DNA of 63,976 bases, the filler included, from Perkinsus olseni (lineage: Eukaryota): the NCBI GenBank assembly GCA_013115125.1. It is 10 parts of 10 records of this genome, joined end to end, with 100 filler letters (N's around TTAATTAATTAA, not from the genome) between each part and the next. Parts side by side here need not be neighbours in the genome. Positions count along the whole stretch, not along the records: positions 39,439 to 45,874 come from JABANN010001099.1; positions 45,975 to 52,391 come from JABANN010001100.1; positions 52,492 to 58,866 come from JABANN010001101.1; 7 more parts are not named here. One strand, 5' to 3'. The position numbers and the translations under genes are program-made. Every line of letters starts with the position of its first letter. Position 1 is the stretch's first letter. Positions 19,648-58,966 of this stretch are shown here, piece after piece. Under the pieces are notes generated by a model, which had not been told where the DNA came from, made no database searches, and saw nothing but the letters and a program-made list of their open reading frames with translations.

Positions 19648-19747
19648 NNNNNNNNNNNNNNNNNNNNNNNNNNNNNNNNNNNNNNNNNNNNTTAATTAAT
19701 TAANNNNNNNNNNNNNNNNNNNNNNNNNNNNNNNNNNNNNNNNNNNN

Positions 19748-22248: not shown

Positions 22249-23149
22249 AGCCTGCTATGTGACTCAAGCGATATCAATGTCATATCGTTTACTTCAACAA
22301 AGTTTGAACTCATTTTTCTAACATCTACGCTATTTCTAATCTCTATTCACAAGATCTCTATCAACAACGTTGGAAGCTATTACCGGTGTATGAATTCAAA
22401 AGGTGTATGTTGCACTCCTACTACGTCTTTGAATGCTGATTTTACTAGTGCCTCGGGCTCTTTCTTAATTCGATTGGGAGTCGAGTTGAGTCAAAGCTAG
22501 TGCTTACCGAGGTTTGTGTCTTTGGTTCCTTGCAACGGAAGGCTACGACTCCTGAAGCGTTGAAGCTCTCTCAGGGGGTCCCAGTGAATTCATGTGAAAG
22601 CAAAGTCTTTGGCGGTTCCGTGTGGTAGACATATGTGTTTGTCGTTCACGGTTCCTGCTCGACCTGTACTCGTGAATCGCGCTTCAACCTGCGTCTAGTT
22701 TCTTTTGATTAGGTACTCTTGCGGCGATTGGCCTCATCGGCGGCGAGGAGCTCTTGTCCTTTGGTGCTCCGGGGTCTCGCCGACTCCGCGAAGCTCTCGT
22801 GTGTAAGCTCATTCATCACAATCACCCCCAAATCAGGATCCGCATACCTACCCTGAACACCATTTCAATCCCACCGGACCACCGTGAATGCAAGTCGCTC
22901 ACAAAATGGGCCCTCAGCAAGACTAAAGCGCAGTTCCTCGGCTCTTCTCGACAGAGGCGAGTCATGTGCTCAGACAGCAGCTTAGACAACTTCTCGATGT
23001 CCAGCAGTTGGATTAGACCGAAGATACCTATCAGAGCGCGTGTATGGATGAGGCCACTCGTCGGCTGATGGCTGCAGACCTATCCTATCCAGTGCGGTTA
23101 ACCCATCACCCTTTGATGATCATCCTACCACAATAGCTACGAGATGTCA

Positions 23150-24128
23150 ATAGCGCAAGTAAATGTCCATAATCAGATACGTTAATCAGGTTCTGATTTC
23201 AGACATGATTTTCCCGCCTTTCCGAATCGAGCTCACTCTCGCTGCATCACACTCAGATCCTATGACTCTGTCTCGCTCCTCCGCAATCAAATCACGCTTT
23301 TGGGTCCGATTCTGTCGAGATTAGATTAGATTAGCAAATCAGCCCGAAAATCAACATTCCTGTCACACTATCCGACGGAGCGGCTTCAAACCTGAAAAAA
23401 TGACGAAACAAAGATGGCGGAGCGATTCGCTGCCAGAATCCATCGACTTACGAATTTTTATGTTGAACAAGGCTACAGACGTGGTCGAAGGATCAGGTCG
23501 CCGATGAATCCCTCCAGGAAAGCGCGTTAGTATTGGTGGAGCGTTTAGGTTGCAGGTTACTCCTGCGAGAGACGCAGGTTCGATCCTTGTAGCTACGAAT
23601 TCGACGGCTTTCTTTAACAATAACTTTTTCTATTTTTAAGAGAGCTTGTACTCGCGAACCACAATCAGCAGTGGATGATCAGGATCAGATTCATGTACCG
23701 GTACGAAATACCCCCGGTACGCTCTAACACGTGGAAAAAGCGTGATTGATTGACTGATTGCGATTGTGTATCAAACTATCATTGTGATTGATGATTCGAA
23801 TCAGAGGCGTGACTCCCAATCAGGTAATAGATCTCGAATCAGCCATTTTTATCAGAGGCAGTTGATTTTTCTCAAGAACTCGTGATTGTGATCAGGCCCT
23901 TGATTAATTTCTCAGACACCTTGATTGATAATCACGATCGTGATTTGATTGATAATTGCAATCACAAATCACCAATCATAATCAACAATCATTGATCTGG
24001 CTCATGGGTCAGTAATAAGAATCCCTAATCGTGCATCTCAATCAGATTTATGTAATCTGGATCGGGCTTCGGGGATCAGGCACTGATTCTGAGCAATGGC
24101 TGTGATTCCTCAATCAGGATCCGCCTAC
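23150..24128. repeat. AATC/GATT-rich non-coding repeat, probable decayed MITE
   Basis: Dense AATCA/TGATT motifs. The end motif AATCAGGATCCGC also occurs near 22831. No left TIR was found. Confidence 0.4.
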
Positions 24129-25752
24129 CGACGCAGTACTCGTCGTGTGAAGCATGTGAAGTGTGCGACGAGGCCGAAATTGACTGTTAGCCTACAAGAT
24201 GTTCTCGCGTTTGCGCGATACTACTCTGAGCAAGACTTGAACCAGCAACCTTGAGTTTTGAAGTTCAACACGCTGTCGGATTGAGCCGTCAGAGCGGCAA
24301 CACTGGTGGGCAGCAGCTACCTGAGCTGTACGGGCCCCGTGATACCGAATGTATCAAATAATGTGCAACACCGCTCAATGCTACTGGGTATCTGTAGATT
24401 GACTAACGTAAATGTCCCCGATTCTCGACTACCCCTGTTCCCTTGCATGTCAGCAGGCTGACTCTTCTCGAGTCAATCGTTCAGGACCGCGAAGGGCTGG
24501 TCCATAGCAAGCCTGGGTTGAAAGATTCCTGAAAACTCTTCTCATGTTCATCCTCTCGACATGATCGTCATAGTTTCGCGTCTCCTCTCCCCTCGCGCAC
24601 GGCCGAAGACTTGTCGTCTCTGAGCGTGAGTGGGAAGAGAAGATCGTCTATAGACACAACAATGTACGCCTCGACGGCGGACTTCGAGGCCATGAGAGAC
24701 GAGTTTCGCAGCATCAGATCTTGTGGCGTGTTAGATGAAACGACTGCAGCGTCCACTTTCGTACCTGTCCGCTATTCACCGCGATGATGAGCGAAGCACT
24801 CAGAAGCGACCAACGGCAGATCACCGATAGTACATCCTCAGGCCTAACGGTATCGTTATTATGGGGCTGAGCTATGACGCGAACTATGATATCACGTTTG
24901 GAGGACCTGGTTAGCATTCCCAGTACTCAGCGTGAAGTGCTCTTAAAACCGTTATAGCAGTGGTTTTCGGCATCAGATTGCAAGAAATAAACTATGTCCG
25001 GGGAATAGGGGTCCGTCAAAGCCGAAGTAGAACTTGCGAAGCGCCAACAACAGAGCGGTGCAAAGTTCAACGTAATTTGTTGCAGCCTCCGAGGTAGGAA
25101 TCTCTCGTTCGGAGGCCGCTCACAACCCGCACGAAAAAGTGGTGCAAGAGCACTTCGAGTTTCCCGTCGAACTGCTTGAAGCTCTTCGGAGATCGTTATG
25201 CAACCCTTACGGCTCAAAGTGGATAGCTGAGCATGGCCGAAAGAGTTGGCGGGAGTCACACAGGGGACACTCGCCCAACCACAACGACAGAATTTCACGT
25301 TTTAATGGACTTTCTCAAGTTGCCGGCAAATTATACTTTTCGGGGAAGTCTCCATCGCAAGCTGACTAGAGTTGATCTCGTCACCGTTCGGAGGTGTATA
25401 GCTTCACTGTTGTATTCATTCGACTGTTTCTTGCGAATGCATAAGAAGCAGCCACATGGTATCAACGACTTGTGTGCAACCTCACGCTAGTGTCCCGTCT
25501 CGAGTGTTTCAACTGCTAGCACTGGCTCGTAGTTCGGCGGATGCTAGACTATCACGACTAAATCACGAATATTGAAATTGAGGTTGATCCAGGTCAAGTT
25601 GGTGTTGGGAGATCTTCGGAAATGTTCTTTTATTAGTTACATATTCTGTTTTCTATCCTTTAAACGATGGTAATAGCTTTCAACTCGTCATTTCATTCGT
25701 ATTTTACTTATTTGTCACGGACAGGACCAACGTAACAGCAAGAGCTGTTCAG

Positions 25753-26226
25753 TTGGACGAGCCTCAGCTCGTATATAACAACTGCGGCTCTGATGCTACT
25801 CTCACGACCACAACCTCTGGCTATGATGATTATGATTATGGGGGGGATGGGGCGTATTCGTACGATGTTTTTTCTAGTAGATATAGTAGTTTAGCGGAAA
25901 CCGGTGATATGAACTATAGCGATGGTCAGCGGTTGTTGGTGGACGAAAGGATAACTACCGGTCATATCACGACGACGACGACCAGCACTACCACTAGTAC
26001 TACTACGTCGAGCACGACGACGGCCAGCACTACCACTAGTACTACTACGTCGACCACGACGACGACCAGCACTACCACTAGTACTACTACGTCGACCACG
26101 ACGACGACCAGCACTACCACTAGTACTACTACGTCGACCACGACGACACCAGCACTACCACTAGTACTACTACGTCGACCACGACGACGACCAGCACTAC
26201 CACTAGTACTACTACGTCGACCACGA
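25753..26226 (+). CDS. 5' part of a Thr-rich mucin-like gene, truncated by contig end (start uncertain)
   Basis: The ORF runs into the same ACCACTAGTACTACTACGTCGACC repeat that opens this contig. Confidence 0.55.
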
Positions 26227-26760
26227 NNNNNNNNNNNNNNNNNNNNNNNNNNNNNNNNNNNNNNNNNNNNTTAATTAATTAANNNNNNNNNNNNNNNNNN
26301 NNNNNNNNNNNNNNNNNNNNNNNNNNTCAGTGACCTCGGCAATGCAGTACTCTAGCGTTGAGTCACCCTCCTCCTCCTCATCCTTTTCGTGCCCTGTGCT
26401 GGTAGGCAGCAAGCCACGCGCCGTACAAAAGGCACACGGCAAGTTCCGAGCTACCATTCTACAGCATCGCGGACATCGTTTTCGCACGAATTTCTTTCTT
26501 GGGGGCATGCTTATAGAAGCAAGATGAATATTGACTGAACCAACAGCAATAGAGGATACCACGTGAGTTCGCCTCTCTGCCAGCGCCGATCAGCCAGCAG
26601 CTAATGTCAGATGAGTCGATCGCTCCGATTAACCGAACTAGGTGGGTCCGGCGAGGATAAAGCAGGAAACTTGCACCACCACCACCACCATACCGCCAAC
26701 CGCGCTACTCCCATTGTTCACATACCGGCGTCTCCGCGACTAACACAATGCAAAACCACC

Positions 26761-32787: not shown

Positions 32788-32887
32788 NNNNNNNNNNNNN
32801 NNNNNNNNNNNNNNNNNNNNNNNNNNNNNNNTTAATTAATTAANNNNNNNNNNNNNNNNNNNNNNNNNNNNNNNNNNNNNNNNNNNN

Positions 32888-39338: not shown

Positions 39339-39511
39339 NNNNNNNNNNNNNNNNNNNNNNNNNNNNNNNNNNNNNNNNNNNNTTAATTAATTAANNNNNN
39401 NNNNNNNNNNNNNNNNNNNNNNNNNNNNNNNNNNNNNNGGCGACAGCAGTAGGAAAGCGCGCAGATATCGATCAATTGGGCGCGCGCTAAATTTAGTGAT
39501 TAGGACACAGA

Positions 39512-44232: not shown

Positions 44233-46026
44233 CCCTCTCCGCTATATATACAGCGGCTGTATTACAGCCTAGTATGAGTCTCTAGCTACTGTAGCTGTGT
44301 AGCCCTCTGGCGGTGTATACAGCCTGTATAAGCCTCTGGCTCGGTCCCCGTCTTTCTATGAGGCCGTCACGCCCTACGTGTCTCAGTACAACGCGCTTAG
44401 GATTCGGCGTGTGCTTGAAGCGAGAGAGTCGAGAAGGATGGTTCATGACTTGCCCGAATGCAGTCATGTCTTCCATGTCAGTCTTTTCCATCGTGGAAAA
44501 GACTCGCGTATCCCGCTTCCCCATCCGGGGAGCCAGATCAGGACGCTGAAGACCGCAGATTTCACCCAGAGGGGCAGTTTCCTATGTCCTGCTGCACGAT
44601 GGTGGCCACCAACTGCTTGCTACCAGCAAGCACAGGCTGCCGCCTGGTAACTGCGTCACGCAGTCTGCGTGAAAAGACGTGCTGTTCACACTCCCAAACT
44701 CTGCATCATGGGAGCCTCGAGGTCGAGTCTCTCAGGGACTGTCCCTGCTTCATTGGCGTCCTCCACGGAATGAGACTGAGTGAGACTGTGTCACAACGTG
44801 GGCCCCAGTCGTGGGATGTGTTGTGGTGTTTTTCTGGGTTCCAGAATCTTCGATCCTGTTGTCGATTTTTTTGGTTACAGCCATTGTTAAACAGTGACCT
44901 GAAAGAATAATGGAGCGAGTGGAGAACAGCTCAAAGAAGGCTACCCAGGACCCGTGGTATTGCGGTACTCCGGTCTGGAGATACTGTAATGCTGTGCAAG
45001 TCCATCTGAGACCTCCCAAGATCGCTGCCTTCGTCGAGGGGCCAACCGACCAGAAGCGCGGTAGCGACCTGAACAGCTGGCATTCGAATGGTGAACCTGG
45101 GCTCAGTTAGACACCAAGTGATAAGGTAATGGCACGTGAGCGCCATAGTTGGTCTTTGCTGGACAGCCTCCACTTTGTCTTCGGGAGGAAAGTGAATATG
45201 GAATCTCAACCGCCAAAGGCTGGAAGAGGTCGATGACGAGGACGGGCGGATGATGCGCGCTCGAACAGACTTTCCCCGCCCGATTCCGCTTGATCCTGTA
45301 CAATCTTTCCTGCTTTATGGCTCCATTCGCTTACTCTGTTGATTGTCCCTGGGCTAGCTTCTACAATGTAGATGCAGTCTAGAAGGCAGCCAGAGGTAGC
45401 TTGATGTGCAATCATGGCATTGCAGTGGAATGATCGCATACGCCTTATGGTCATCATCATGTCTTCCCGGATGTACTACGATAATAAGAGCTGCTACAAA
45501 CGTTATACAGGCGGCACGCTCTCCTTGGATAGAGTTTATAACGGAAGTTATTCGGTTTCACTCACGGCTGACAGCGGTACCCTTGCTAGCAATGCTATGT
45601 GTCCTGTATCTTGCGAGTCCTCCTGCACGTGGATTCTTGCGCCCTTGCCAACTAAGCGATCCTCACTTGCTCGACTCGAATTTCCGGGAGCGTATTTCCT
45701 CATTACAGAAATTCTGCCTTGTCGTTGAAACACTAACAGTCAAACCCGAGACCCGGACGGTGGAACGCCTTGTGAATATCTGATCGTTTCGTGACTGTCG
45801 GAGTCGCCGATTTCGACTCGCGAGTCTTGCGACGCAAGACGTAGCTGTCACTTGGGTATCCAGATTACCCGAGCNNNNNNNNNNNNNNNNNNNNNNNNNN
45901 NNNNNNNNNNNNNNNNNNTTAATTAATTAANNNNNNNNNNNNNNNNNNNNNNNNNNNNNNNNNNNNNNNNNNNNAAGGGTTAAGTTAAGCCTTTAACAAC
46001 TCTGTGTGAGTTGAGTTGTAGTGGTA

Positions 46027-47655
46027 TCAACAACATTCACTACACAAAGGCCTTAATTCTTGGGGCTGCTCCGCGGGGATGGACGACGAAGAAGAAGATT
46101 GGCCAGAGACCTGCATCTCATCTCCCGTAGATCTCAAAAACCCTGAAGGCAAAAGCAAATGGTTAGCATTACAGATATCATAGATAGTGGACTGATCTAC
46201 TAGGGGTACCGGCGTTGGCTCAGCAGCAAACCATGGCTCCCAAAGCTCTCGGGAAGAACCATATTTTTCCTTCAAGACATCATGCAAGGCCTTAGTCCTC
46301 GGCGACCACTCGCCCGTAGTTAAAGAAGACGACAGAACAAGGCCTTCAATGTCAAGCCTCCCAGTGGGAAGCCCACTGGGAGCAGACTCGACAACCTCAC
46401 CTACAGGACTCTCAGTGGATCTAGCCGAAAACCACGTCGTAGAGGGCGAAGATGATCGTCGTACAGGAGGGACCCTTGAGCCACCCACACTCCCTTTCAT
46501 ACCGCCACGACGAGACCTCATAGCCTTTGTCATCAAAGGCCTTACAGGTGGCATCTTAGCCGTAGCCGCCTTAGCAGGAGGAGGTGGAAACCGCCTTGGC
46601 GGCGGCACATAGACGAAATCTATCAAGGCCTGAATCGACTCCTGAACATGAGCGTCGAAAGGACAAGTGCCTTTGCGTAACTCGGAAGCAGAAGACATAG
46701 AAAGGCCTGACCGATACTCGCGGTCCGTGCATAGCCGCCATACGATAAGCCTTCCCATCCTCGAGTGCACGTAGATACCGAGGTCATCGCCATTCCTCAC
46801 ATGATACCACAAGGCCTGACCGAGGGCGTGAACAGGAGGAGGGAGTCGATGCCAATTGAGATGATCCAACAAGGCCTGAGCCGTTATACCACTCTTAAAA
46901 TAGGGATGATCCACAAAGCAAAAAGGAAAATCCTCAAGGCCTGTATAACTATACTCGCCGCAAGCATTGCGTTGAGTATAAGAACGAACTCCTTGAGTGT
47001 GATAAGGGCTCTCTTGGACATGCTTCTTAAAGGCCTCAAGTAGATCGGCCAAGTCAAAAGCAGTGGGACCTTCAAACTTATATCCAGGGGGAGTAGCAGC
47101 TGATACCAATAAATTCCCCAAGTTAGGCGGACCACCACGAGTAGGGACAGCCATACCACAAGCCGCACAAAAATACAAATTCTTAGACGGAATCCATATC
47201 CCATGAGAAAAGGCCTCAAGAAGGGGTCCTCCCTCATCCGAGCGAAGAGCGGAATAGTCCAAAGGCGGCAGAATAACAGTATCCAACCCACAACAGACTT
47301 GCATAAGGCCTATAGTCTCTTGAACCCACGGAAATAGCAAACCAGCCACTTCCGCAGCTACATCAGGTTCCTCGAAAGGACAACCAAAAACCAAGCGAGA
47401 CTTCATAAGCTGAAAGTCCGATGAAGACGAACGCCATCTAGACGGAGTATAAGGCCCAACGAGAATAGGATCCCACGGAGGCGGGGCACGACCTGCCGGA
47501 GCCTCCGGCCGAACCCAACGGTTCCAACCCATAGGACCATTCAGGCTTTTAAGCAGGCTGTCGAGAGCGGCAATGGAGGGGTGTTCCTTCCTCATCTCCG
47601 AGTCCAAGGCCTTAATAAGGGGCAAGGCCGCAGGGGTGAGACGAATGACAGACAT
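46027..47655 (-). CDS. Extra 3' ORF of the Gypsy element, 542 aa, unknown function, possible Zn finger
   Basis: Intronless ATG ORF about 660 nt downstream of pol, with FCAACG...KHVQESPYH. It shares the element's AGGCCTT enrichment. Confidence 0.75.
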   Translation of the reverse strand: MSVIRLTPAALPLIKALDSEMRKEHPSIAALDSLLKSLNGPMGWNRWVRPEAPAGRAPPPWDPILVGPYTPSRWRSSSSDFQLMKSRLVFGCPFEEPDVAAEVAGLLFPWVQETIGLMQVCCGLDTVILPPLDYSALRSDEGGPLLEAFSHGIWIPSKNLYFCAACGMAVPTRGGPPNLGNLLVSAATPPGYKFEGPTAFDLADLLEAFKKHVQESPYHTQGVRSYTQRNACGEYSYTGLEDFPFCFVDHPYFKSGITAQALLDHLNWHRLPPPVHALGQALWYHVRNGDDLGIYVHSRMGRLIVWRLCTDREYRSGLSMSSASELRKGTCPFDAHVQESIQALIDFVYVPPPRRFPPPPAKAATAKMPPVRPLMTKAMRSRRGGMKGSVGGSRVPPVRRSSSPSTTWFSARSTESPVGEVVESAPSGLPTGRLDIEGLVLSSSLTTGEWSPRTKALHDVLKEKYGSSRELWEPWFAAEPTPVPLVDQSTIYDICNANHLLLPSGFLRSTGDEMQVSGQSSSSSSIPAEQPQELRPLCSECC

Positions 47656-48318
47656 CCCAGGAAGTGTTCAAATACGGTTTGAACAAAGCGCTACAAGGCC
47701 TCAATCTTGGTCTTCATAACGCTATAACCAGTAACGATGAAAGCGGGCACCATAACTAACGCGTTCGAATGAGAATTCCCGGATAATCACCAATCGCAAG
47801 GGTCGGATCATTCCCGTCTCGGAATTAACAGGGCCGATGCGCGCATCTTGAGATCTTGCAGAACTTGCAATTCCTCAATACTACGGGTTCCAGAATAATG
47901 CGAATTCTGGTACTCGTAAATAACCATCACTGATCAATTGAGTCAGCGAAACAGCGATTCACGTCAAAGGACGAACACCACATGAGTCACAACACATCAT
48001 GGGTAGAAGGCCTCAACATCGCAAACACCGAGAACTTGTCGAAAATCTTCACTAAGAAATGGACTCGTTCAAGGCGGTTCCTTCCAGTTCTTGTCGTCTT
48101 GAGGTAGTCGAAACAACCCAAAAGAGCCATGGTAGTTGAGAGTCCAACAACACTCAAGCAGGAACATACAAAAGGCCATCTTAACCAATAACAAGTGGTC
48201 CATCAACACTAACGTAGTCGACCCAGGTATACCACTTAACGAAATAATACACTCAGTACCTCAAAAGGCCTGAAGAACTATGGCGACGAGCTCACTGTCG
48301 TCGTCAACATACCATATC

Positions 48319-51300
48319 TTACAAATTCAAACGCTTAGGAGGTCGTACCTCTCGTCGAGGCCGATCCCTAGCAAGAGACCAATCATGGGGAGGCACCTCG
48401 GCGACTTCCTCCGAAGAACTACACTCCTCATTGCTCTCAACACCTTCAGCATTGCTTCGAACACCATCATTGCTTCGAACACCATCACTCTCCTCCCCTC
48501 CAAGATCACCATCTTCACCAACCACCGGGGAAGAGGCCGAACTCGAGGAACTTGTCGAGTGAGGCTGTGCAGATTCATTAGCAGAAAGGCCTGATTCTTC
48601 AGAAGCAAGTGAGGAAACTAAGTCTGACTGGTTAACGGAAACAAAATCTTGCACATCATCTCCTAACGCTGATCTCAAAGCCTGAGAGCCCTGGCTACCA
48701 GAGCCAGAGTGACCGTCGTCATCGTAGTCGGCAACAATACCCTCAACTTCCTCTGCACCATCAGGACGTGCACCATCAACCGAAGCGGGCGCAGATGACC
48801 GCTGCTGCTCGCTTGAAGAACCAGTGCTCTGGACCTCGGGGTCTTGAGGTCCAGTACCTTGTGCCAGAAGGGGCGTAGCACGAGAATCCACGTACTCAGC
48901 AACTATAGGAACTTCAGGTCCATGCTGATAAGGTAGGTCTCGAGCAACCGAACTCTCCGAAGATGACGAAGTCGTTTCTTGCCGTAATAGGTCCAATACC
49001 GCAGTCGGAACTTCTTCTGGTTGAATAGGATCTATAAATAAGTGATCAACACTAATAACCTTAACACGATTAGTAGCAGGGTGGATCACTTCCACCGTCT
49101 TGTTCTCAAGGTTCGGCAAAGCCTTAAGAACATACCAATCACCTTCCCACCTAGGGGATAACTTATTAGCTCGTGCAAGGCCTAAGGTTTCCAAACGAAC
49201 CCTCATACCTGGCCGAAACTGACGTTCTCGACTCTTAGCATTATAGGAGGCCTTGTACGACATGGCCGCCTGAGTAACACACTCATTCACCTTGTCCTGG
49301 ATCATCGCTCTCGTATGACTGATGTATCTCGCAAAGGCCTCAGGGTCAAACAACATGTTTTGAACTTGGCCTAAGGAAGGGAACCATAGATCAGGAGGAT
49401 CTCGTCCATACATCAGATAGAATGGAGAGGCTTTAGTGGAAGAGTGAATACTGGTGTTGTAAAACCAGACCAAAGAACCAAGATGTTGATACCAATCGTG
49501 GGTAGTTTCCACGTGTACTCGAAGCATCTTGAGGAAGGTTTGGTTGAACCTTTCCACCAATCCGTTACCAATAGGATGGTAAACGGATGAACGACTCTTC
49601 TTCACACCAAGAAGGCCTAAGACAAACTTAAACATCCAGGACTCAAAAGGAGGGCCTTGGTCAGAATGAAGTCGCAACGGTGGCCCAAATAACAAAAATA
49701 AATGATATAAAGGCCTGGCAACATCTGCCCAAGTATGTTCCTTAAGCGGAACAACATGCGCCCATTTCGTAAAATAATCTTGTAATACCAAAAGAGCCGA
49801 GATCCCATCAGCATTCTTGGGTACTGTAAGTAAATCTATAGCGACCGTTTCCCAAGGCCTACCAATAGGTACCGGCATCAAAGGGGCTGGCGGCGGTCTA
49901 GACTTCTTGCTGTTGAGGCAACCATCACAGGAAGACACATACTTCTCAATATCTTCTGCCATGCACGGCCAATACGCCAAGGTCTGAACTTTTTCCAACA
50001 ACCGGGGAGCGCCAACATGCCCAACATCATCATGAAATCTCTGAATCATAGTATACCGCAAGCTTGTTGGCACCACCGGAACCCAAATAGGACCAGAATA
50101 CGCAGAAGGCCTTACTTCACGCACAAGTAAATCATCACACACATCAAGAGTTTTCTATACCCTCTTGTAAGAAATGAAGTCAGGTCCCTTAAGCTCAGTA
50201 CGGCTCAGCGGAGTAGCATCTTGAGCTCGGGAAGCAACTTGAGATAAGATACCATCATTCTTCTGAGCTTCCAGAAGATCGGCAAAGGAAAATGCCGGAG
50301 TCAGGACCACTGCATGCGCTCCAGGAACGTGAAGATGACTTCGTTCTACAAGGCCTGAAGCACTAACTTGTGCTTGGGTCACCGACGTCTCACCAGTCAT
50401 ACTTGGATCCAACCGAACTCGAGATAAGGCGTCCGCGGCAGCGTTCTTAGAAGCAGGTACATAAACCACAGTAAACTTGTACTGTTGAAGAGCTAATAGC
50501 CATCTTTGTAGCTTCTGGGAAGTTGCCTTCTCAAGCCACTGTAAAGGCCTATGGTCAGTATAGCACGTAACTTGCAGATCATAACCATAATGAAGATGTC
50601 TGAAGCGCTCAAGGCATTTCATCAACGCATAGGCCTCTTTCTCATAAACAGCCCAATTCAGTTGTGAGCCCGAAAAGGTCTGGCTATAGAAAGCTAAAGG
50701 CCTACCATCTTGCTGTAGAACGCCTCCCATGGCATAATCAGAAGCATCTGACGCTATCTGAAAAGGCCTAGAGAAGTCAGGGTAATCCAGCGAGGGTAAA
50801 CCAACCAAGGCTTGCTTAAGATCAACAAAGGCCTGATCATGAATATCATACCAGCTGTCGTTGGTCAAAACCTCGTCCTTAGCAGAAGCCTTAAGCAACT
50901 CTTGAAGACATCGGGCACGGTCGGAATAGTGTGGAATGAAATGTCGATAATAACCAGCAAGGCCTAAGAAACTTCTAAGCTCAGTCGAAGTCCTTGGGAC
51001 AGGCCAACGAACAATACTATCGACCTTAGCTGGGTCCGGAGACATTCCATCAGCACCATAAACATGGCCTAAATACACCACTTTCCTAAGCCCTAGCGAA
51101 CATTTTTCGCCAGACAAAGTCAAGCCAGCGTCTAATAAGGCCTTAAACACCAACCGAAGATGTTCCACATGCTCCTCAGGAGTACGAGAGAACACGAGAA
51201 TATCATCCAAATAAACACGTACAAAGTCAAACTCGCCGACTACATAGTCCATCAACCGCTGGAAACTTGCAGGGGCTGATGACAAACCAAAAGGCATTCG

Positions 51301-52347
51301 GTTCCACTCATAAAGAGGAAAACCGGGGCCAGGACAAAAGGCAGTCTTATGTCGATCAGAATGCCTAACCTTAAGTTGCCAATAACCACTCCGTAAATCC
51401 AGGGTAGAGAAAATAGTAGCACCAGCCAGATGTTCTTGTACGTCGTCAGGACGTGGGACAGGATAAGCGTCAACCTTGGAGACCTTATTCAAGGCCCGAT
51501 AGTCGATACATATCCTGACCTTACCATTCTTCTTAGCCGCAAACACACAAGGGAACTTATAAGCCGACGTAGAACGCTTGATGACACCCAACTCTTCCAT
51601 CTCCTTCAGCTGCTCTTGCACCTCAACTCGCCACTTGTGTGGTAAAGGCCTAACTCGTTGTACTATAGGCGCAGAGTCCGTGAGAGGGATAGAGTGTTCC
51701 ATCGACTCGCAAAGGCCTGGACGGTTCTTGAAGAGGTCGCCGAATTCCACACATAGCTTAATTAAATCCTTGTAAGCTGGAGAATCCTTGGGAACTTCGG
51801 GGAGCGTCTTGCCAATATCCGTAAAATCGGGGATGGCGAACTGCAAGGCCTGAGCAAGATCATCATCAAGCAAACTGTCAGGTTCCACACCAGGACCGGG
51901 CCATTCTTCCGGCGTAGAAGCAACCTGCTTGACGTCGGAGGACTCGGACCGAAAGCATAGAGGGGTAGCCTCCAAGGGACTAACCTTAGAGGTATCCTTG
52001 ACAGCCGCAAAGACAAGTTTCCCATGCGTAGCGTCAAAGTCAGTAGTCTGGATGATAGGGACCGAACATTCCCAATCTTCATCATGTCGATGTTGAACAT
52101 AGGTATCTTGAGGACTACCTTGGGCTTCTTGATGGTTCACAGAGGAGGTCGACAACAACGTATCCTTTCCTTGAGAAGGCCTAACATCATCATCATCAGG
52201 ACCAACCATAGTCAACCTCGCCGAATCATGAAGCGTAGCACCCAACATAGTAGTCTTCTTCAATAAAGGGTGTATACGAGGAGCTTCACGGGTAGAAGGA
52301 AAACCAAATAATCGAAGAGCCTTCACTATACCCAGGCTCCATACCAA
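48319..52347 (-). CDS. pol: Gypsy pol (RT, RNase H, integrase) with one in-frame TAG at 50155-50157
   Basis: Motifs RICIDYRALN, LDLRSGYWQ, MPFGL, YLDD, SDASDY, YTDHRPL, ADALSR, H..GH...C..C, AIDL, HSDQG and GLVERFN. Both ORFs are in the same frame. Confidence 0.93.
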
Positions 52348-52798
52348 AATGGGTCAGAAAATCATGGCCCAAAATAATCTCATGAGCTAGANNNNNNNNN
52401 NNNNNNNNNNNNNNNNNNNNNNNNNNNNNNNNNNNTTAATTAATTAANNNNNNNNNNNNNNNNNNNNNNNNNNNNNNNNNNNNNNNNNNNNTTCCGAGGG
52501 TTGGTCCTCCCCTTCTGTCGTGTAAGATTTTGCACCGGCCATTAAGAGAGTCAAAACTTCCTCCATGGAGGCATCCGCATTCCACGTGGGGACAATGATC
52601 ATACGACATCCCAATAAAATACGCCACAACAGCTCATTCATACCTGCATCGGGTACCATGTCAGCTGTGTTACTGGTTGAGCTTGGCATAACACAAGGGA
52701 AACACTTGGGAATAGAAGCATAATTATTAGTAGGAATACGCAGGGCAGACTACTAGCCATAGCTTAGCCAAGGGATACGGAGGCACACAAATGGGGAC

Positions 52799-52854
52799 AC
52801 GAGTATCCGACACTAGTAGTGTCGGATACTCGTACTGTAGTGTCACACTACAGT
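52799..52854. repeat. Twin perfect palindromes with 1-nt spacers (17-bp and 10-bp arms)
   Basis: ACGAGTATCCGACACTA-G-TAGTGTCGGATACTCGT is immediately followed by ACTGTAGTGT-C-ACACTACAGT. Confidence 0.95.
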
Positions 52855-53021
52855 CATACTACTGAAGACTACTGACTTGAATCGCTGGTGCGGGTAGGGT
52901 GCGTGAGGCCGAGGTCTGACGCGGCTAAGCTTCTCGACCCCTCCCCCTTTTGCCCCCCTCCCGCGTATCCTCGCGATGACTTATCTCCCTAGTCTTCATT
53001 TGATACTCTTACTCAGTAGCT

Positions 53022-53999
53022 ATGCCTAAAGCTCGTGCATCCAGGCGGAAAGCTACTTCACCGGCCTCTAAGCCACTAAACAAGAAGAAACGCCTCACCC
53101 CGGTAGCCTCTAAGCCGAGTACTACAGGTGAACCTACTAAGTTGGTTGCTCAGCAACAATTTCCTGTCTCCCCTCTCCTGAGCCCAGCAGCTGCTCTCTC
53201 ACAACCTAATACTATCAGGGAGGACCCGGTACATCCACCGGACGCGGTATCCTTAACTGATCTTGACTCACAAGTGCGAGATTTCATCAACAATCAATAT
53301 CACCATTCTCCTCATGCTCATCCTGTCCCCCCCTTACCGGACACGTCCTCACCCATGGTTCAGAAACCTCTATCAATGCCGGGGCATCTTATGGCTCCGC
53401 TTTACAGCAAGTGGTCTTCCTTGGAAATGTTCCTCGATCAACCATGGTTCGCCTATATACCAACTTCGTGGTCTCGAGTAAAGGGGGTCAACATCGACAA
53501 ACATACTGAGACTTACTCCGTCGCGGCAGTTACCATGTCAGCCATTGGCTTTGGGACTCGCCTAGCCCACGCCGGTGTTATCAACAGCACGACTGCTCTG
53601 ACTATCATTGGAAAAGTGGTAGATTGCTCGTTCGGCCTGAATGGTACTCTCAAATCACGTCATGAACTCGACAAAATGATTACTATGTCGTTGGGCTTAG
53701 TTCAAGCACGCGAAGTGGCCAACGCCGATCTGTCAACTACTAACCCGGTCGATTCTGTGCTCAACTCTGCCTTGAACCATTTTGAAGGGTTCAGCCTACC
53801 TCCACCAAAACTAGATCGCACTGCAACCTCTTGGAAGAAGCAGGGTTGGAAAGATCAGGATCGCTGGACTTCTAAGCAGAAGTCTGGGAGCAACTGGCAA
53901 GGCAATTGGCAAGGCAATGGTTGGTGGTGCGATGAAGGATCTAAATCTAAAGCACGACAAGCGGAAACTTCTGACAAGCACAGCAAACCCTCGTCCTAA
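53022..53999 (+). CDS. ORF1, putative Gag-like protein of the YR retroelement
   Basis: 325 aa, with a basic/Pro-rich N-terminus and a W/G/K-rich C-terminus. Assigned by position upstream of RT. Confidence 0.7.
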   Translation: MPKARASRRKATSPASKPLNKKKRLTPVASKPSTTGEPTKLVAQQQFPVSPLLSPAAALSQPNTIREDPVHPPDAVSLTDLDSQVRDFINNQYHHSPHAHPVPPLPDTSSPMVQKPLSMPGHLMAPLYSKWSSLEMFLDQPWFAYIPTSWSRVKGVNIDKHTETYSVAAVTMSAIGFGTRLAHAGVINSTTALTIIGKVVDCSFGLNGTLKSRHELDKMITMSLGLVQAREVANADLSTTNPVDSVLNSALNHFEGFSLPPPKLDRTATSWKKQGWKDQDRWTSKQKSGSNWQGNWQGNGWWCDEGSKSKARQAETSDKHSKPSS

Positions 54000-54185
54000 G
54001 CCTTGTAATATTGCTGTTGTCCTACCCTTTCTGCCCGGAATGGGACACTCATTTACCTAACTCCTTCTCATCAGATTGCTAAACCATATCAGTAGTACAA
54101 CGAATTTTACACCATCAACTCATCCTTGATCACCTCTTCTACAGTCTCAGCTACCAAGGGTCGAGTTCTTAGTCTCGTTCTTACT

Positions 54186-56366
54186 ATGCCTGTAGCTATT
54201 TCTGCAATGTCTGCAAATGTCGATTCACCCCGCCCGACGAAACTTTCACGGCGAGGCTCTAGAAGCAAGACCAGCGAATTTATTCGAAGGTCTCGTCAAG
54301 CCTTACAACATGTTGGTTTACACGAGCTCATAGAGATTATACTTTACAAGAAAATCATTGTCCTTAGGCCTAAGGACAATTCTAAGATTATCTATGGGTA
54401 CCCACCTTGTTCCAAGAAGCTTCATACTCTCATACATGCCGAGGAGCTCTCCTGCCATATCACATCACCCGAAGAACATCTGCTTTGGGCGTTGGGTCAG
54501 GATTTTCTTCCACAAGAAGATGTCCTACTACCCACAATGTTACAGGCCACTATAGCTTTACAGAACGAACTCACTCAAAACCAGCTAACCTGGTTGCGGG
54601 CTCACAACAAGCTGCACATCACTTCTTGGCTCGGAACCTCTCCTTCTGGCGAAGAACTCTACTGGAGGAATCAACTTATCAAGCCGGTACCATCCAATTG
54701 GCGACTGGACCGTATCATGAAGTTGCTACTCATCACTAACCATCGAGATCAAGATTTACCTTTCTTTTCGGCTTCGGGGTTTCCCTTAACGGGGATCATT
54801 CCCGATGGAAACTTGTATCCTCGTCTCTCACGACCCAGGGTAGAATTGTACCCTCCCGAAGCTCTCACTGTGAGCAAAAAGTCTTTGTCCTCCATCACAG
54901 CCTACTTACAACGATCTTTCAACGACGAACACTTGAACGAGGCCATCATCAAAGACGTCCACTCGGAGGTCGCCCTGGGCCGGGCATGGGGCCCTTATTC
55001 ACTGGTGGATCTACCGTCTCAAGCAAGCTTCGTTTCACCGCTTTTTGCCATCTCCCAACCGGACAAGATCCGCTTGATCTCAAATTATTCCTATCGGTCA
55101 GCGGGGAAGAAATTGAATGGAGCGATGTCCATACACCACAAGGTTCAATTTCCTCGCCTTCTTCATGTGGCTAAGATTGTTAAGCTGTTGCACGTCCGAG
55201 GTCAAAAAACTATCTACCGCATTGACCACAAAGCTGCCTACCGCCAACTCCCGGTGAGGGAAGAAGATTGCTGGCGTGCATGTGGCCTTTTTCTAGATTC
55301 ATTCTCATCACCGAGTATTGTGGTCCCTCGCAGATGCCCCTTCGGGGCAGTGGCCTCAGTAACAAACTATCTGAGGACATCAGAAATGATGAGCCATCTA
55401 GCTCGATGTTTGGGTATCATCAATCGAATGGCCTACATGGACGACTACTTCGCTGTGGAGTGCGTCCATTCCGCTTTGGACGCACAACAGTTCTTTTCAT
55501 TTCTAAATGAACTCATCGGCGCAGAGATCAAACATGAAAAAGATGTTCCTCCGTCAGAGTCATTGGTTCTTCTAGGTTTACAAATTGATCTCAGTACTAA
55601 TGATTTCACCGTGACGGTTACTCCAGATCGTCGTTTGAAGTTGAGAGAGCACCTTCTACGAATACAAGGCGATCATGCTCGTATCGATTCTAAATTGACC
55701 GGGAAATTATCATTCTGTTGTGAAGCTTTATATGGTCGGTCGGGTAGAGGTCCTGTCAGGCTCTTGATACGCAAGGCAGCTGGGTTACCAGTGGATGATG
55801 ATCTGGTTTCACAGGCGATCTCTCTATTAGTCGACATCTTCGCTTCACCACCCCCTTGTGCATATCCACTTGCCGACTTAAATACCCGACTTCAACCGTA
55901 CATATGTTACGCAGATGCGGCTACATCTACTGGCAACATTGCAGTTTATGGGCCTCCCCAGCTTGGTCTCTCTGCTCTGTACTCAATAGTTCCTACAGGG
56001 CTCCATGATAACATCAACATCCTCGAATTTCTGGCATTGGCAGTGGCAATTACAACATTCCACAACAAGGTTCCCCAACAGCCCCTGAGAGTCTTCTCGG
56101 ATAGCAAGGTCGCGGAGCTAGCTCTCCTCAGAGGAAGTAGCTCCTCTGGGCTTCTTTGCCTAGCGATACATCATTTCTGGCTGGAGTTAGCTCACTTACC
56201 ATCTTTTGTCTTCTTTGTTGCTCACGTTAAGTCGGGGTGCAATCCTGCTGATGCCCTGTCTAGAAATAATTTCGATGTCATATGGTTGAATGACGCAGTA
56301 CTCTTACCCGCATCTCTCCCACAATGGTGTTCTGATCCCGCTTTTGGCGTCTCGGGGTCACTATAG
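54186..56366 (+). CDS. Reverse transcriptase-RNase H of the YR retroelement
   Basis: RT motifs KIRLI, IDHKAAYRQLP, PFG, YMDDY and LLGL. RNase H motifs YADAA, INILEFLA, FSDS and NPADALSR. Confidence 0.93.
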   Translation: MPVAISAMSANVDSPRPTKLSRRGSRSKTSEFIRRSRQALQHVGLHELIEIILYKKIIVLRPKDNSKIIYGYPPCSKKLHTLIHAEELSCHITSPEEHLLWALGQDFLPQEDVLLPTMLQATIALQNELTQNQLTWLRAHNKLHITSWLGTSPSGEELYWRNQLIKPVPSNWRLDRIMKLLLITNHRDQDLPFFSASGFPLTGIIPDGNLYPRLSRPRVELYPPEALTVSKKSLSSITAYLQRSFNDEHLNEAIIKDVHSEVALGRAWGPYSLVDLPSQASFVSPLFAISQPDKIRLISNYSYRSAGKKLNGAMSIHHKVQFPRLLHVAKIVKLLHVRGQKTIYRIDHKAAYRQLPVREEDCWRACGLFLDSFSSPSIVVPRRCPFGAVASVTNYLRTSEMMSHLARCLGIINRMAYMDDYFAVECVHSALDAQQFFSFLNELIGAEIKHEKDVPPSESLVLLGLQIDLSTNDFTVTVTPDRRLKLREHLLRIQGDHARIDSKLTGKLSFCCEALYGRSGRGPVRLLIRKAAGLPVDDDLVSQAISLLVDIFASPPPCAYPLADLNTRLQPYICYADAATSTGNIAVYGPPQLGLSALYSIVPTGLHDNINILEFLALAVAITTFHNKVPQQPLRVFSDSKVAELALLRGSSSSGLLCLAIHHFWLELAHLPSFVFFVAHVKSGCNPADALSRNNFDVIWLNDAVLLPASLPQWCSDPAFGVSGSL

Positions 56367-56465
56367 CATTTTTTTCCGAACTATCTTACTCGCTTTTGTT
56401 CTCCACTGGTTCGAAATGGTCTTCACTGAAGACTCTTCAGGAACAACAGGGTTCTCCCATATAAC

Positions 56466-57527
56466 ATGCCACCGTACATTCAGCCCCTGCCAGCAGAGCC
56501 TCTTCTACTCACGGTTCTTCACAACCCTACAAGACTCCACGAGAGTATGGTAGCAGCTTCTGTTCTCACTATCACAGATCTCTATTACTGGAAGCCGCCT
56601 AACTTACCATCAGCCACAGCAATCAAACTTCACATGGTTAAATCTCACCCTGACTTTACAGCTGCCCTCCTAGCCGATGGGTTGCCTATTCTACCACATG
56701 ATGAGCAAGTATATCTCGACCAACATCTTGCGCCCACCACATGGAAGTCTTACCGATCTGCACTGAAGTCTTTCATCGTCTGGCACTGGCGGAACTGGCC
56801 ACGTCGACCTATCTTTCCTACGCAAGCAGTCGTCATACGTAGATTCATAGCAGCTGACCCTGTCCATGCCCGGTATGTCACGGCCTTGAAGAAAATACAT
56901 ACCTTATTGTCGTTACCCATACTCTTCGAGGATGGATTGACCAAATCTATAGTTAAAGGAGCTTTCAAAGTCCTTAATGCTCGTAAATTCCCCCGCGTTT
57001 TCATTTCATTTGACGACTTACAACACATAGTTCGGATTGCACACGCGCACAACTGGATACTTTTCTCTAGTTTGTGCGTTTTAGCCTACTACTTTGGTGT
57101 TCGGGTGCCTTCGGAACTCTTGGATCTGCATAATCGGGACCTCATCGTCTCAGGCTCCTCTGTGTATTTGCGCTTACATCGCCGCAAGAGATCGAATCGC
57201 CCTTGCCATTTGTATCGCAAATGTACATGTGCTACTTTCGGAAAGGATCTGTGCCCAGTAGAAGCTGCCAAAATCATTAATCTACATCAGTCACATAGTA
57301 TGTCCTTGTCTAGCTTTAACAGATTACTCAAACAGTGTGCTGCAGTGTGCCCCAAACTTGATTCCCACCATATCAGCTCTCATGGTTTTCGCAGGGGTTT
57401 TACTTCAGACATAGCATTGTCCCAGGCACCACAACATCTCATCGATAAACTAGGGGGCTGGTCATCTCCGAAGTCCAAACACCACTATCTCTCACATCAG
57501 GCCGCACTATATCTGGCTAAAACGTAA
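56466..57527 (+). CDS. Tyrosine recombinase
   Basis: LAPTTWKSY N-terminal helix, then GVRVPSEL (R), LCPV, HGFRRG (HxxR), LGGWSS and the HY catalytic Tyr. Confidence 0.93.
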   Translation: MPPYIQPLPAEPLLLTVLHNPTRLHESMVAASVLTITDLYYWKPPNLPSATAIKLHMVKSHPDFTAALLADGLPILPHDEQVYLDQHLAPTTWKSYRSALKSFIVWHWRNWPRRPIFPTQAVVIRRFIAADPVHARYVTALKKIHTLLSLPILFEDGLTKSIVKGAFKVLNARKFPRVFISFDDLQHIVRIAHAHNWILFSSLCVLAYYFGVRVPSELLDLHNRDLIVSGSSVYLRLHRRKRSNRPCHLYRKCTCATFGKDLCPVEAAKIINLHQSHSMSLSSFNRLLKQCAAVCPKLDSHHISSHGFRRGFTSDIALSQAPQHLIDKLGGWSSPKSKHHYLSHQAALYLAKT

Positions 57528-57845
57528 CCTTATATGATATAAGTTATATCATTCGGCTTCATTTCATCGGTTTGCTCCACCTCATCATTTCACTTATCTA
57601 CGAGTTGTAATTGGGTTACTCAGTTCGAGCTCTCCATCGACGGGAGGAAGAGAGCTCGCACGAGAGGGAGTGAGCTACAGTAGCTACATATGAGCTACGC
57701 TACAGCTCCAACCTCAAGCCTCAGCGCGCTAAGCGACGAAGGGAAGGACGCACGCTGACGAAGGTTGGAGCTCTCATCGCTTCTCACTCCCCAACGCATC
57801 TTAGAAGCGTGACGGAGGTTCAACCATCGAGGCGTGTATGAGAAA

Positions 57846-58793
57846 CAGTGTGGCTGACGGACAGAATAAATCGTGGAAAATTTTCTCTTGAAAATTTTCG
57901 ACAGAAAGAAAAGAAAAATAAGAAAAAATAGAAAATTTACGGAAAAATAGGGACGAAAATGCAGAAATCTCCCGGAACCAGGGTACTTAAGTTGCAGATT
58001 TAGGATAAATCAATATCGGCCATCACGATATCAGCGACGTTTCGACATTCCATAGGAGCAGTACTGAGTGAACGAGATTTATAGGCTTTGCCAACCCTTC
58101 TCCGTCCGCCTAGCGCTCTAAATTTGAACCGTTGGTGATCGGAGGTAGCCTACCGCCGGTAGGTGACCGTCCATCTGCACAAGTCGTACAGTATCATGCT
58201 CGTCGCGCAACAAGCTAGCTACGCATGAACATCGGATATTACAGCAACGTATGGCCTTGTCACCGAGATAATTATCAGGTTTATCAACAGGAAATTCATG
58301 CCGTGAAATGCAAGACGTGATTATCCCATATCTCACGATCTAGATCGAGGCAGCTGTTGTTTTTCAAGAATTTTCTTCATAGTGCAGAAGCTGGACGGAA
58401 GGTGCGGGCCTTGTTGTTCGGGTCCCTTTGAACTCCGAGACTCCCGGATCGGGGGTTTAGCTCCCCCGAAATCAAGTCGTGTCACATACAACTCTGTTTG
58501 ACTTGAGCGCAAGCACTGACACCCGGAATCTACACAGTGCACGGTGACACTGTATAGCTGGGAGCTCCGCCGTACATTAGTGACTAATGATTTGTCGGTT
58601 AGACCGTAATACGGTGGCAGAAAAAATTCATGAAAATACCCCAAATTCGCTCCAGAACAGCCATTTTTTCAATTTTTTCCTTCGGGCGCGCGCTTTCTGC
58701 ATTTGAACAGAAAAATAGATTCTGTTATATGTTCGGAAATTTTTGAAAATTTCGAACAGAAAGATGAAAATTTTCATTGTGTCAGCCACACTG
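57846..58793. mobile_element. Non-autonomous hAT-type DNA transposon (948 bp)
   Basis: Perfect 13-bp TIR CAGTGTGGCTGAC / GTCAGCCACACTG and perfect 8-bp TSD ATGAGAAA (57838-57845, 58794-58801). Subtermini are GAAAATTTT-rich and there is no transposase. Confidence 0.9.
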
Positions 58794-58966
58794 ATGAGAA
58801 ACACAACGGAAGCTTGTGTTATCATACGCGCTGTTGATGGGCGCGCGCTTTCAAACGGCCAGCACGNNNNNNNNNNNNNNNNNNNNNNNNNNNNNNNNNN
58901 NNNNNNNNNNTTAATTAATTAANNNNNNNNNNNNNNNNNNNNNNNNNNNNNNNNNNNNNNNNNNNN

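Follow-up and report, generated by a model that had tools for sequence, protein, structure and literature searches.

The sequence considered here is a stretch of 63,976 bases (the window) from the genome assembly of Perkinsus olseni, in which ten contigs, size-ordered from 6484 down to 5010 bp, are joined by spacers of the form N44-TTAATTAATTAA-N44. One of these contigs (6417 bp), whose ends coincide exactly with positions 45975-52391, holds part of a Ty3/Gypsy element that carries, on its sense strand, 34 copies of the heptamer AGGCCTT. As the window consists of ten joined contigs and is not one locus, setting this element against the rest of the window means comparing contigs, and the comparison sequence used throughout is formed by the nine other, unrelated contigs of the same assembly, 57 kb in all.

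An oriented heptamer laid over the element

The three open reading frames (ORFs) of the element, polA, polB and ORFx, share one sense frame on the minus strand (Table 1). The Pfam domains of the first two follow each other in the order RVT_1, RT_RNaseH, Integrase_H2C2 and rve, which is the pol order of the Ty3/Gypsy elements (Metaviridae). While polA holds the reverse transcriptase (RT) and RNase H, polB comprises the zinc-binding and core domains of the integrase, followed by a tail rich in Ser and acidic residues. This copy may be dead, or the in-frame TAG at 50155-50157 may be read through. A protein search found thousands of homologues of pol in Gypsy elements, and the best protein matches of the element come from P. 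olseni (77-95% identity) and P. marinus (60-63%). Neither a long terminal repeat (LTR) nor any other direct repeat was found on the contig, which ends inside the element, and there is no gag on it, pol beginning 39 nucleotides (nt) from the contig end. In a relative (P0004), a zinc knuckle (zf-CCHC) is located upstream of the RT.

The hexamer AGGCCT occurs 46 times in the window, with counts of 1, 3, 0, 1, 1, 2, 0, 36, 1, and 1 in the successive contigs, and the 36 copies of the element lie within 46048-52182. All but two of these 36 read AAGGCCT on the plus strand, that is, AGGCCTT on the sense strand of the element. A sequence-only reading of the window had arrived by hand at about 36 hexamers, about 34 of them in this orientation, and about ten in the other ~57 kb; the counts (36, 34, and 10) bear this out, with the correction that the other ~57 kb are nine separate contigs. 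It had put the chance expectation at about 1.6 hexamers; a first-order Markov model of the contig gave 1.83±1.39 hexamers (maximum 7) and 0.57±0.77 heptamers (maximum 4) in 300 simulations. Models of this kind, trained on the element contig itself, predict 1.9 and 6.0 heptamers at orders 2 and 3, compared with the 34 observed.

The orientation of the sites is strongly biased: 27 are sense-only, seven are the full palindrome AAGGCCTT, one is antisense-only, and one is neither, which amounts to 34 AGGCCTT on the sense strand versus eight on the opposite strand, seven of the eight being the shared palindrome. The flanks show a T at position -2 in 25 of the 36 sites and a T or G directly after the word in 29, and are otherwise free. 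The 33 coding sites are distributed over codon phases 0, 1, and 2 as 10, 13, and 10 (read as R-P-x, [KQE]-A-[LF], and x-G-L, respectively), and three more are found in the spacer between polB and ORFx. When synonymous codons were shuffled within each ORF, which keeps both the protein and its codon usage, 2.6±1.5 heptamers were obtained in the three ORFs (maximum 8 in 1000 shuffles) versus 31 observed. Under this null, the heptamer is the sole outlying k-mer (z = 19.5), as the other high scorers all overlap it, and the same k-mer screen revealed no second enriched motif in the element.

The unit under selection can be delimited by considering compatible places, meaning all positions in the three ORFs at which AGGCCTT could be written with synonymous codons. 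The element uses 31 of 40 such places, while places able to hold AGGCCT without the seventh T are used in two of 12 cases and those for the reverse heptamer in one of eight. Ten further heptamers served as controls (end variants differing by one letter, and other palindrome cores), each of which occupies between zero and two of the 3-35 places available to it. The dipeptide Arg-Pro illustrates this dependence on the last letter, since it is encoded as AGG CCT in 10/10 cases when the next codon starts with T and in 0/8 when any other codon follows. In the eight other long ORFs of the window (4294 amino acids, second transposon included), none of 24 compatible places is used, and such places are four times rarer per residue there than in the element. 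The one-letter variants of the heptamer occur in at most two copies each, 21 in total versus 11.5 expected, and near-matches are therefore not depleted. The selected unit is thus the asymmetric, oriented heptamer AGGCCTT and not the palindromic hexamer.

The sequence-only reading had placed the motif in pol, the extra ORF, the spacer, and every frame, and had taken it for a signal at the level of nucleic acid, overlaid on coding sequence, instead of one peptide motif. The three phases and the contrast between 31/40 and 0/24 places agree with this view, and neither of the accounts that it had named as capable of overturning it (codon shuffles that reproduce the count, or an equal density in host genes) was borne out, the latter as far as 57 kb of comparison sequence reach.

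The sites are also spaced. The mean distance between them is 175 nt and the minimum 53 nt, and 20,000 uniform placements never reached this minimum. Random draws of 31 from the 40 compatible places gave a minimum of at least 53 nt in 0.026% of 200,000 trials (P = 0.00026). Of the nine unused places, six are 16-49 nt away from an occupied one, which indicates a spacing rule and not a mere shortage of places. Away from occupied sites, 31 of 34 compatible places are used, and two of the three that are not spell AGGCTTT, one transition off the word. A strong positive pressure at the nucleotide level acts on the exact, strand-specific heptamer; it is restricted to the element, where sites exclude one another over about 50 nt.

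That all of this is a by-product or an artefact is hardly credible, whether the cause be sought in peptide or internal repeats, in codon usage, or in errors of assembly or sequencing. Dense 7-mers do stem from tandem or peptide repeats elsewhere, as in the metagenomic loci L187, L147, and L127 and the viral contigs described below, but the sites of the element occupy all three phases, their flanks vary, their spacing is irregular, and codon shuffles do not reproduce their number. Moreover, the alignment of pol to other Gypsy pols needs no insertions at the sites, and the same sites appear in contigs assembled from public sequencing runs of organism A (three studies), which match the element contig at 90-100%. 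One public-run piece of 1038 nt covers six motif sites with 0 differences. Four 151-nt pieces from run X10 (organism B label) are identical to the contig and are uninformative on divergence.

Table 1. Features of the element contig, AGGCCT sites in sense order, and remaining landmarks of the window (phase, codon phase of the site, with the peptide that it encodes in brackets)
Feature	Position	Strand	Remarks
Element contig	45975..52391	-	Internal part of Ty3/Gypsy element of Perkinsus; boundaries are N spacers
polA	50158..52353	-	732 amino acids, RT and RNase H; RVT_1 5e-31, RT_RNaseH 2e-28; 12 AGGCCT sites
In-frame TAG	50155..50157	-	Between RT-RNase H part and integrase part of pol
polB	48322..50154	-	611 amino acids; Integrase_H2C2 2e-16, rve 2e-7; 8 AGGCCT sites
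Spacer	47668..48318	-	~650 nt, stops in all frames; 3 AGGCCTT (AGGCCT at 48266, 48008, 47696)
ORFx	46027..47667	-	546 amino acids, first Met 47653-47655; orphan; 13 AGGCCTT sites
Terminal 70 nt	45975..46044	-	Sense TGTAGTG...; joined to varied sequences in public-run contigs
AGGCCTT	52176..52182	-	polA, phase 0 (V-R-P-S-Q)
AGGCCTT	51845..51851	-	polA, phase 1 (A-Q-A-L-Q)
AGGCCTT	51712..51718	-	polA, phase 2 (R-P-G-L-C)
AGGCCTT	51645..51651	-	polA, phase 0 (V-R-P-L-P); R-P-[LF] in 5/13 Perkinsus, 0/95 other Gypsy pols
AGGCCTT	51137..51143	-	polA, phase 1 (F-K-A-L-L)
AGGCCTT	50959..50965	-	polA, phase 2 (F-L-G-L-A); peptide conserved in all Gypsy pols
AGGCCTT	50828..50834	-	polA, phase 1 (D-Q-A-F-V)
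AGGCCTT	50763..50769	-	polA, phase 0 (S-R-P-F-Q); R-P-F in 11/14 Perkinsus, 0/103 other pols
AGGCCTT	50697..50703	-	polA, phase 0 (G-R-P-L-A); R-P-L in 9/12 Perkinsus, 0/104 other pols
AGGCCT only (sense AGGCCTA)	50631..50636	-	polA, phase 1 (K-E-A-Y-A)
AGGCCTT	50544..50550	-	polA, phase 0 (H-R-P-L-Q); R-P-L in 6/12 Perkinsus, 1/101 other pols
AGGCCTT	50350..50356	-	polA, phase 2 (A-S-G-L-V)
AGGCCTT	50106..50112	-	polB, phase 0 (V-R-P-S-A)
AGGCCTT	49854..49860	-	polB, phase 0 (G-R-P-W-E)
AGGCCTT	49710..49716	-	polB, phase 0 (A-R-P-L-Y)
AGGCCTT	49612..49618	-	polB, phase 2 (V-L-G-L-L)
AGGCCTT	49334..49340	-	polB, phase 1 (P-E-A-F-A)
AGGCCT only (sense AAGGCCTC)	49248..49253	-	polB, phase 1 (Y-K-A-S-Y); single antisense-only site
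AGGCCTT	49177..49183	-	polB, phase 2 (T-L-G-L-A)
AGGCCTT	48586..48592	-	polB tail, phase 2 (E-S-G-L-S)
AGGCCTT	48265..48271	-	Non-coding spacer
AGGCCTT	48007..48013	-	Non-coding spacer
AGGCCTT	47695..47701	-	Non-coding spacer, ~40 nt upstream of ORFx Met codon
AGGCCTT	47606..47612	-	ORFx, phase 1 (I-K-A-L-D); kept in P. chesapeaki homologue
AGGCCTT	47305..47311	-	ORFx, phase 2 (T-I-G-L-M)
AGGCCTT	47210..47216	-	ORFx, phase 1 (L-E-A-F-S)
AGGCCTT	47030..47036	-	ORFx, phase 1 (L-E-A-F-K)
AGGCCTT	46936..46942	-	ORFx, phase 2 (Y-T-G-L-E)
AGGCCTT	46871..46877	-	ORFx, phase 1 (A-Q-A-L-L)
AGGCCTT	46811..46817	-	ORFx, phase 1 (G-Q-A-L-W)
AGGCCTT	46702..46708	-	ORFx, phase 2 (R-S-G-L-S)
AGGCCTT	46625..46631	-	ORFx, phase 1 (I-Q-A-L-I)
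AGGCCTT	46536..46542	-	ORFx, phase 0 (V-R-P-L-M)
AGGCCTT	46339..46345	-	ORFx, phase 2 (I-E-G-L-V); extra base in some paralogues deletes seventh letter
AGGCCTT	46286..46292	-	ORFx, phase 1 (T-K-A-L-H)
AGGCCTT	46047..46053	-	ORFx, phase 0 (L-R-P-L-C); 3 nt from 46044/46045 junction
Second transposon	52492-58866	+	Consecutive long ORFs 53004-53999, 54096-56366, 56430-57527
Spacers between contigs	6485-6584, 13067-13166, 19648-19747, 26227-26326, 32788-32887		N44-TTAATTAATTAA-N44
Spacers between contigs (rest)	39339-39438, 45875-45974, 52392-52491, 58867-58966		N44-TTAATTAATTAA-N44

Shaping of the protein and the pattern in relatives

The tripeptides that accommodate the word in phases 0 and 1, RP[FLSYCW] and [KQE]A[FL], are 3.7-4.9 times more frequent in the three ORFs than expected from shuffling. 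In 17 homologues from P. olseni, P. marinus, and P. chesapeaki, the same set is enriched 1.5-6.5 times, with the highest value in the ORFx homologue of P. chesapeaki, whereas 105 non-Perkinsus Gypsy pols show a pooled ratio of 1.0 (maximum 2.4), which argues that the protein itself has been shaped by the word. Four conserved positions of the RT and RNase H point in the same direction: R-P-L or R-P-F appears there in 5-11 of 12-14 Perkinsus pols, whereas non-Perkinsus pols show RRI, KPF/TPF, HVI, or APL, and a compatible tripeptide in 0-1 of 95-104 sequences.

Three sites differ between relatives in the phase with which the word is compatible. The ORFx homologue of P. chesapeaki has E-G-L instead of E-A-F at 47210..47216 and Q-G-L instead of Q-A-L at 46625..46631, both of which fit the heptamer in phase 2, and in the integrase, at 49710..49716, two Perkinsus relatives have Q-A-L or K-A-L where this copy has R-P-L, also compatible in another phase. 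Judging from these peptides, it looks as if the nucleotide word had been kept while its reading slid by one base. The feature would thus appear, at the protein level, to be old and lineage-wide in Perkinsus.

A change of amino acids together with the saturation of synonymous places is the outcome that a persistent drive would produce. It has therefore to be considered whether a sequence-specific bias of mutation, repair, or conversion, devoid of any function, has turned near-matches into the word, for instance during reverse transcription or through modification-directed short-patch repair. Very-short-patch repair is thought to inflate its target word in bacteria, and such a bias would spare selection on ~34 separate sites. 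However, the palindromic hexamer, which would be the natural target of modification, is not enriched alone, either at hexamer-only places or in Arg-Pro codons that lack the seventh T, the host ORFs and the second transposon are untouched, and the one-letter variants are undepleted. Nor does the bias explain the lack of conversion at places up to 50 nt away from a site, and it is a quite improbable origin of the pattern.

The occurrence of the pattern in three Perkinsus species at the protein level also speaks against the proposal that the sites serve the host, as seed matches of small RNAs or as targets of a host repressor, and are present on the element for some reason unrelated to its own advantage. 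With its seven exact bases, the word has the size of a small-RNA seed match, and animal host repressors recognise short words in retroelements, but a defence target should be lost, instead of reaching 31 of 40 places and the amino-acid sequence of the element. This explanation is very improbable.

Outside Perkinsus, the word was looked for in a comparison panel of 80 metagenomic Gypsy loci (29-42% identity, with no Perkinsus relative among them), none of which has more than four copies of AGGCCTT (3-4 at most, in either orientation), so that its abundance is no general trait of Gypsy elements. The three panel loci with the densest top 7-mers were inspected and rejected as analogues. In L147 and L127, the dense 7-mers are one-frame peptide repeats, and in L187, the 36 copies of TGGCCA lie in tandem repeats of its two terminal repeats. 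This metagenomic Gypsy element carries many GGCC-core words in a different, non-coding manner, with 18 and 17 TGGCCA in short tandem repeats at 25-509 and 7757-8167, inside apparent LTRs. Among viral contigs, no relative of the element was found, a protein scan giving 10 pattern matches. At least 120 stretches of viral contigs hold three spaced AGGCCTT, and the seven richest-looking were discarded as regularly spaced tandem, collagen-like, or CRISPR-like (clustered regularly interspaced short palindromic repeats) arrays.

The left end of the element contig requires a separate comment. Contigs from public runs branch at 46044/46045 in three runs (loose ends), while other copies of the element read on as open coding sequence past this point. 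It is therefore probable that positions 45975..46044 represent the beginning of an LTR or of another repeat, and are not part of the ORFx of other copies. Since those copies continue as open coding sequence, the end of ORFx on this contig is unlikely to be its native C-terminus. In run X3, depth in the leftmost bin is 3.5 times higher. With regard to base composition, the sense strand of the element is T-rich, with T in 41% of third codon positions. The differences among paralogues (runs X1, X3, and X8) are mostly transitions and are asymmetric on the plus strand, where G>A and A>G changes outnumber C>T and T>C by about two to one (in X3, for instance, 88 and 78 versus 41 and 37).

The nine other contigs encode an amino-acid transporter, an enolase-like gene, an RRM protein, and a second transposon (52492-58866), the last ORF of which is a tyrosine recombinase (Phage_integrase, 1e-7), so that this contig is probably a DIRS- or Crypton-like transposon. 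It uses none of its 11 AGGCCTT-compatible places, thereby providing a transposon control within the assembly, and a first-order k-mer screen found no outlying word of its own in it. In contig 3, a tandem array at 14805-15075, with a 30-nt unit built on a CTGGTACAGTT... core, accounts for the top k-mers of the contig. The word TCTGGTAC, considered as a second signal on that contig, was rejected as a 30-nt tandem repeat. Finally, short words are heavily repeated in 19748-26226 (ORF 19696-22248 region), with TACCAC present 65 times and GGTTGTGA 28 times. They suggest that an 850-amino-acid open frame, which shows only a weak CFEM match, contains a long tandem or peptide repeat.

How the word may be read

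Predicted folding gives no indication of a shared structure around the sites. Folding 34 windows centred on the motif yields an empty consensus, with the same local energies as in controls. Relative to GC-matched controls, the hexamer has a higher predicted tendency to be paired (median unpaired probability of 0.004 versus 0.012, P = 0.015), and a display of the sites in exposed or kissing loops is disfavoured by these predictions. Scans of the element with Rfam and tRNA models returned no match. The absence of a shared fold suggests a linear site, the strand bias suggests either a reader of a single-stranded form or a directional process, and the exclusion distance suggests a bulky reader or one site per reader unit.

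The explanation that we favour, at somewhat less than even probability, treats AGGCCTT as a 'self' tag that is selected and strand-specific and is read repeatedly along the single-stranded RNA of the element. Overlaid on pol, spacer, and extra ORF of this Perkinsus Ty3/Gypsy lineage as a nucleic-acid signal, the word would be a linear site, defined by sequence only, that is recognised while the element is single-stranded, the sense genomic RNA being the likeliest such form. Its reader would be a protein or complex that covers about 50 nt per site, and the ~34 sites of each RNA would act as a multivalent mark for particle selection, export, or protection. Copies competing for this reader would push the number of sites up to the steric limit, as uptake bias does in bacteria. 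Gag, through the zinc-knuckle nucleocapsid that relatives possess, is one candidate reader; the orphan ORFx protein and a host RNA-binding protein are others. ORFx is a candidate only because it sits on the same element. Its close homologues are confined to P. chesapeaki (51%) and P. olseni (92%), a search of 1.84 billion representatives with a profile returned six proteins, all of Perkinsus, and its AlphaFold models are poor (predicted local distance difference test, pLDDT, of 32.8 and 47.3), with 0 matches at E≤0.001 when a model was compared with the PDB by Foldseek. That RNA of such an element carries a 'self' tag is plausible in the light of two published cases: the packaging of Ty3 RNA depends on sequences of the untranslated regions or POL, with the Gag sites undefined (PMC4974528), and alphavirus genomes are selected through multiple dispersed binding sites of the capsid protein (PMC7499256).

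Several observations weigh against this proposal. No reader was found, as ORFx has no Pfam match, no usable Atlas match, and no fold match, and Gag is not on the contig. Strand bias alone cannot separate RNA from minus-strand complementary DNA (cDNA) or duplex DNA, and some 34 weakly additive sites would be demanding to keep by selection alone. The copy has an in-frame TAG and may thus be dead. For the other species, the case for a conserved heptamer is made through peptides, and would hold to the extent that these report the nucleotide word. Three ORFx paralogues of P. olseni (P0126, P0129, and P0130, ~21-22% identity) show no tripeptide enrichment, so sister families of Perkinsus elements may lack AGGCCTT or carry another word. 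Among paralogue differences (40 of 466), 0 substitutions fall in the 28 motif bases covered, where about two were expected, a result that does not discriminate, and one paralogue indel destroys the seventh letter of a heptamer.

The same selected heptamer could instead be read on DNA, either on the minus-strand cDNA or on the integrated duplex. In the first case, AAGGCCT on the minus-strand cDNA would provide, for example, many internal points of start or processing for plus-strand synthesis. In the second, the oriented sites would be bound by a directional DNA-binding protein involved, for instance, in anti-silencing, boundary formation, or a transcription-coupled action. The bias, exactness, spacing, and saturation of the sites fit a cDNA reader equally well, the sites are predicted to be mostly paired in RNA, and one of them lies 3 nt from the 46044/46045 junction. 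Internal copies of plus-strand primers are known in Ty1 and HIV-1, and an array of 12 Su(Hw) sites is present in Drosophila gypsy. Nevertheless, known plus-strand primers are purine-rich and this word is not, and 46044/46045 is probably an insertion or an assembly branch and not the border between primer and LTR of the element, because other copies continue as coding sequence across it. For the same reason, a reading of the adjacent site as resembling a polypurine tract was dropped. Ends of public-run contigs near some sites are, by eye, no more frequent than expected. Sites of duplex-binding proteins usually work both ways, while here 27 are sense-only versus one antisense-only. A reader of DNA is on balance unlikely, though it deserves more credit than the biased-repair and host-directed explanations.

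A bolder form of the RNA proposal, which we consider doubtful, would make the word a family-specific RNA barcode. In it, the heptamer would occupy every permissive place at least ~53 nt apart and would reach into the amino-acid sequence across a whole Perkinsus Ty3/Gypsy lineage. It would predate the split of P. olseni, P. marinus, and P. chesapeaki, at times preserved through a shift of reading frame around the unchanged word, and would be read by the Gag nucleocapsid or ORFx to pick self RNA. If true, it would be the first molecular drive of the uptake-sequence kind in a eukaryotic retroelement, the 53-nt rule would correspond to the footprint of the reader, and sister families might carry other barcodes.

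Known recognition words and significance

Over-represented recognition words overlaid on genes are a known kind of signal. The uptake signal sequences and DNA uptake sequences (USS/DUS) of Pasteurellaceae and Neisseriaceae are bacterial and genome-wide, read on DNA, and present in both orientations at about one per kb, and their accumulation is attributed to a sequence-specific machine with a preference for molecules bearing the word. As in these bacteria, a short exact word is found here far above chance and is tolerated in genes in all frames. AGGCCTT differs in belonging to one eukaryotic retroelement lineage and one strand, at about one per 175 nt and with a minimum spacing.

The highly iterated palindrome HIP1 (GCGATCGC) of cyanobacteria is a hyper-abundant, genome-wide palindrome, and the element shares with it a hyper-abundant short word that overrides codon choice. 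The sequence-only reading had drawn this analogy, and had also suggested dimerisation of the RNA through the self-complementary core. Its general view of a nucleic-acid-level signal over coding sequence stands, but these palindrome-centred parts are disfavoured. The unit is not a palindrome, as hexamer-only places are used in 2/12 cases, Arg-Pro without T in 0/8, and orientations are 27 versus 1, nor is the word genome-wide, with 10 AGGCCT in the nine other contigs and 0/24 places used in those 57 kb. With regard to dimerisation, the heptamer and not the palindrome is selected, and neither exposed loops nor a shared hairpin are predicted.

The crossover hotspot instigator (Chi) and the FtsK orienting polar sequences (KOPS) are likewise asymmetric words with a strong strand bias (34 versus 8 in the element), tied in their case to a directional process. 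They are chromosome-wide, their bias follows the direction of replication, and their excess is much lower, whereas AGGCCTT is confined to one of ten contigs, and we know of no comparable process for an LTR element. In the array of Drosophila gypsy, a Gypsy-type element also carries many copies of one protein-binding word, read by a host zinc-finger protein on duplex DNA, but those twelve sites occupy a few hundred non-coding bases of the leader, while AGGCCTT is spread through genes.

Packaging motifs of RNA viruses are short, degenerate, and shown on stem-loops, in contrast to the exact heptamer of the element, for which the predicted consensus fold is empty. The dispersed packaging signals of positive-strand RNA viruses nevertheless resemble the 36 sites found here in being many and spread over the genome, including its coding part, and dispersed sites for the capsid protein jointly mark the genome for encapsidation (PMC7499256). 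Ty3 and Ty1, of the same superfamily as the element, would be the closest term of comparison, but the portion of PMC4974528 considered defines no packaging word for either, and it describes how LTR retrotransposons choose their own RNA as poorly defined even in these two.

Searches of the literature, supplementary files excepted, brought up no account of a comparable word in Perkinsus or in any retroelement, and a search for the bare heptamer returned only primers. Although the kind of signal is known, its setting in a eukaryotic LTR retrotransposon, its exactness, its saturation, and its spacing rule were not found described. The word sits at nearly every permissive place, at a cost to the protein of the element itself and with a fixed minimum spacing. 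As one exact word repeated ~34 times, it would constitute a ready-made and countable cis signal whose sites can be removed synonymously, moved, or multiplied, and its binding partner could be fished with a 7-nt bait. The use of synonymous-compatible places, together with spacing, provides a simple computational signature for overlaid codes elsewhere. If the proposed reading is true, the logic of molecular drive known from bacterial uptake sequences can also act on a eukaryotic mobile element. For Perkinsus, a parasite of molluscs (oysters and clams) with few genetic tools, the word marks a whole transposon lineage.

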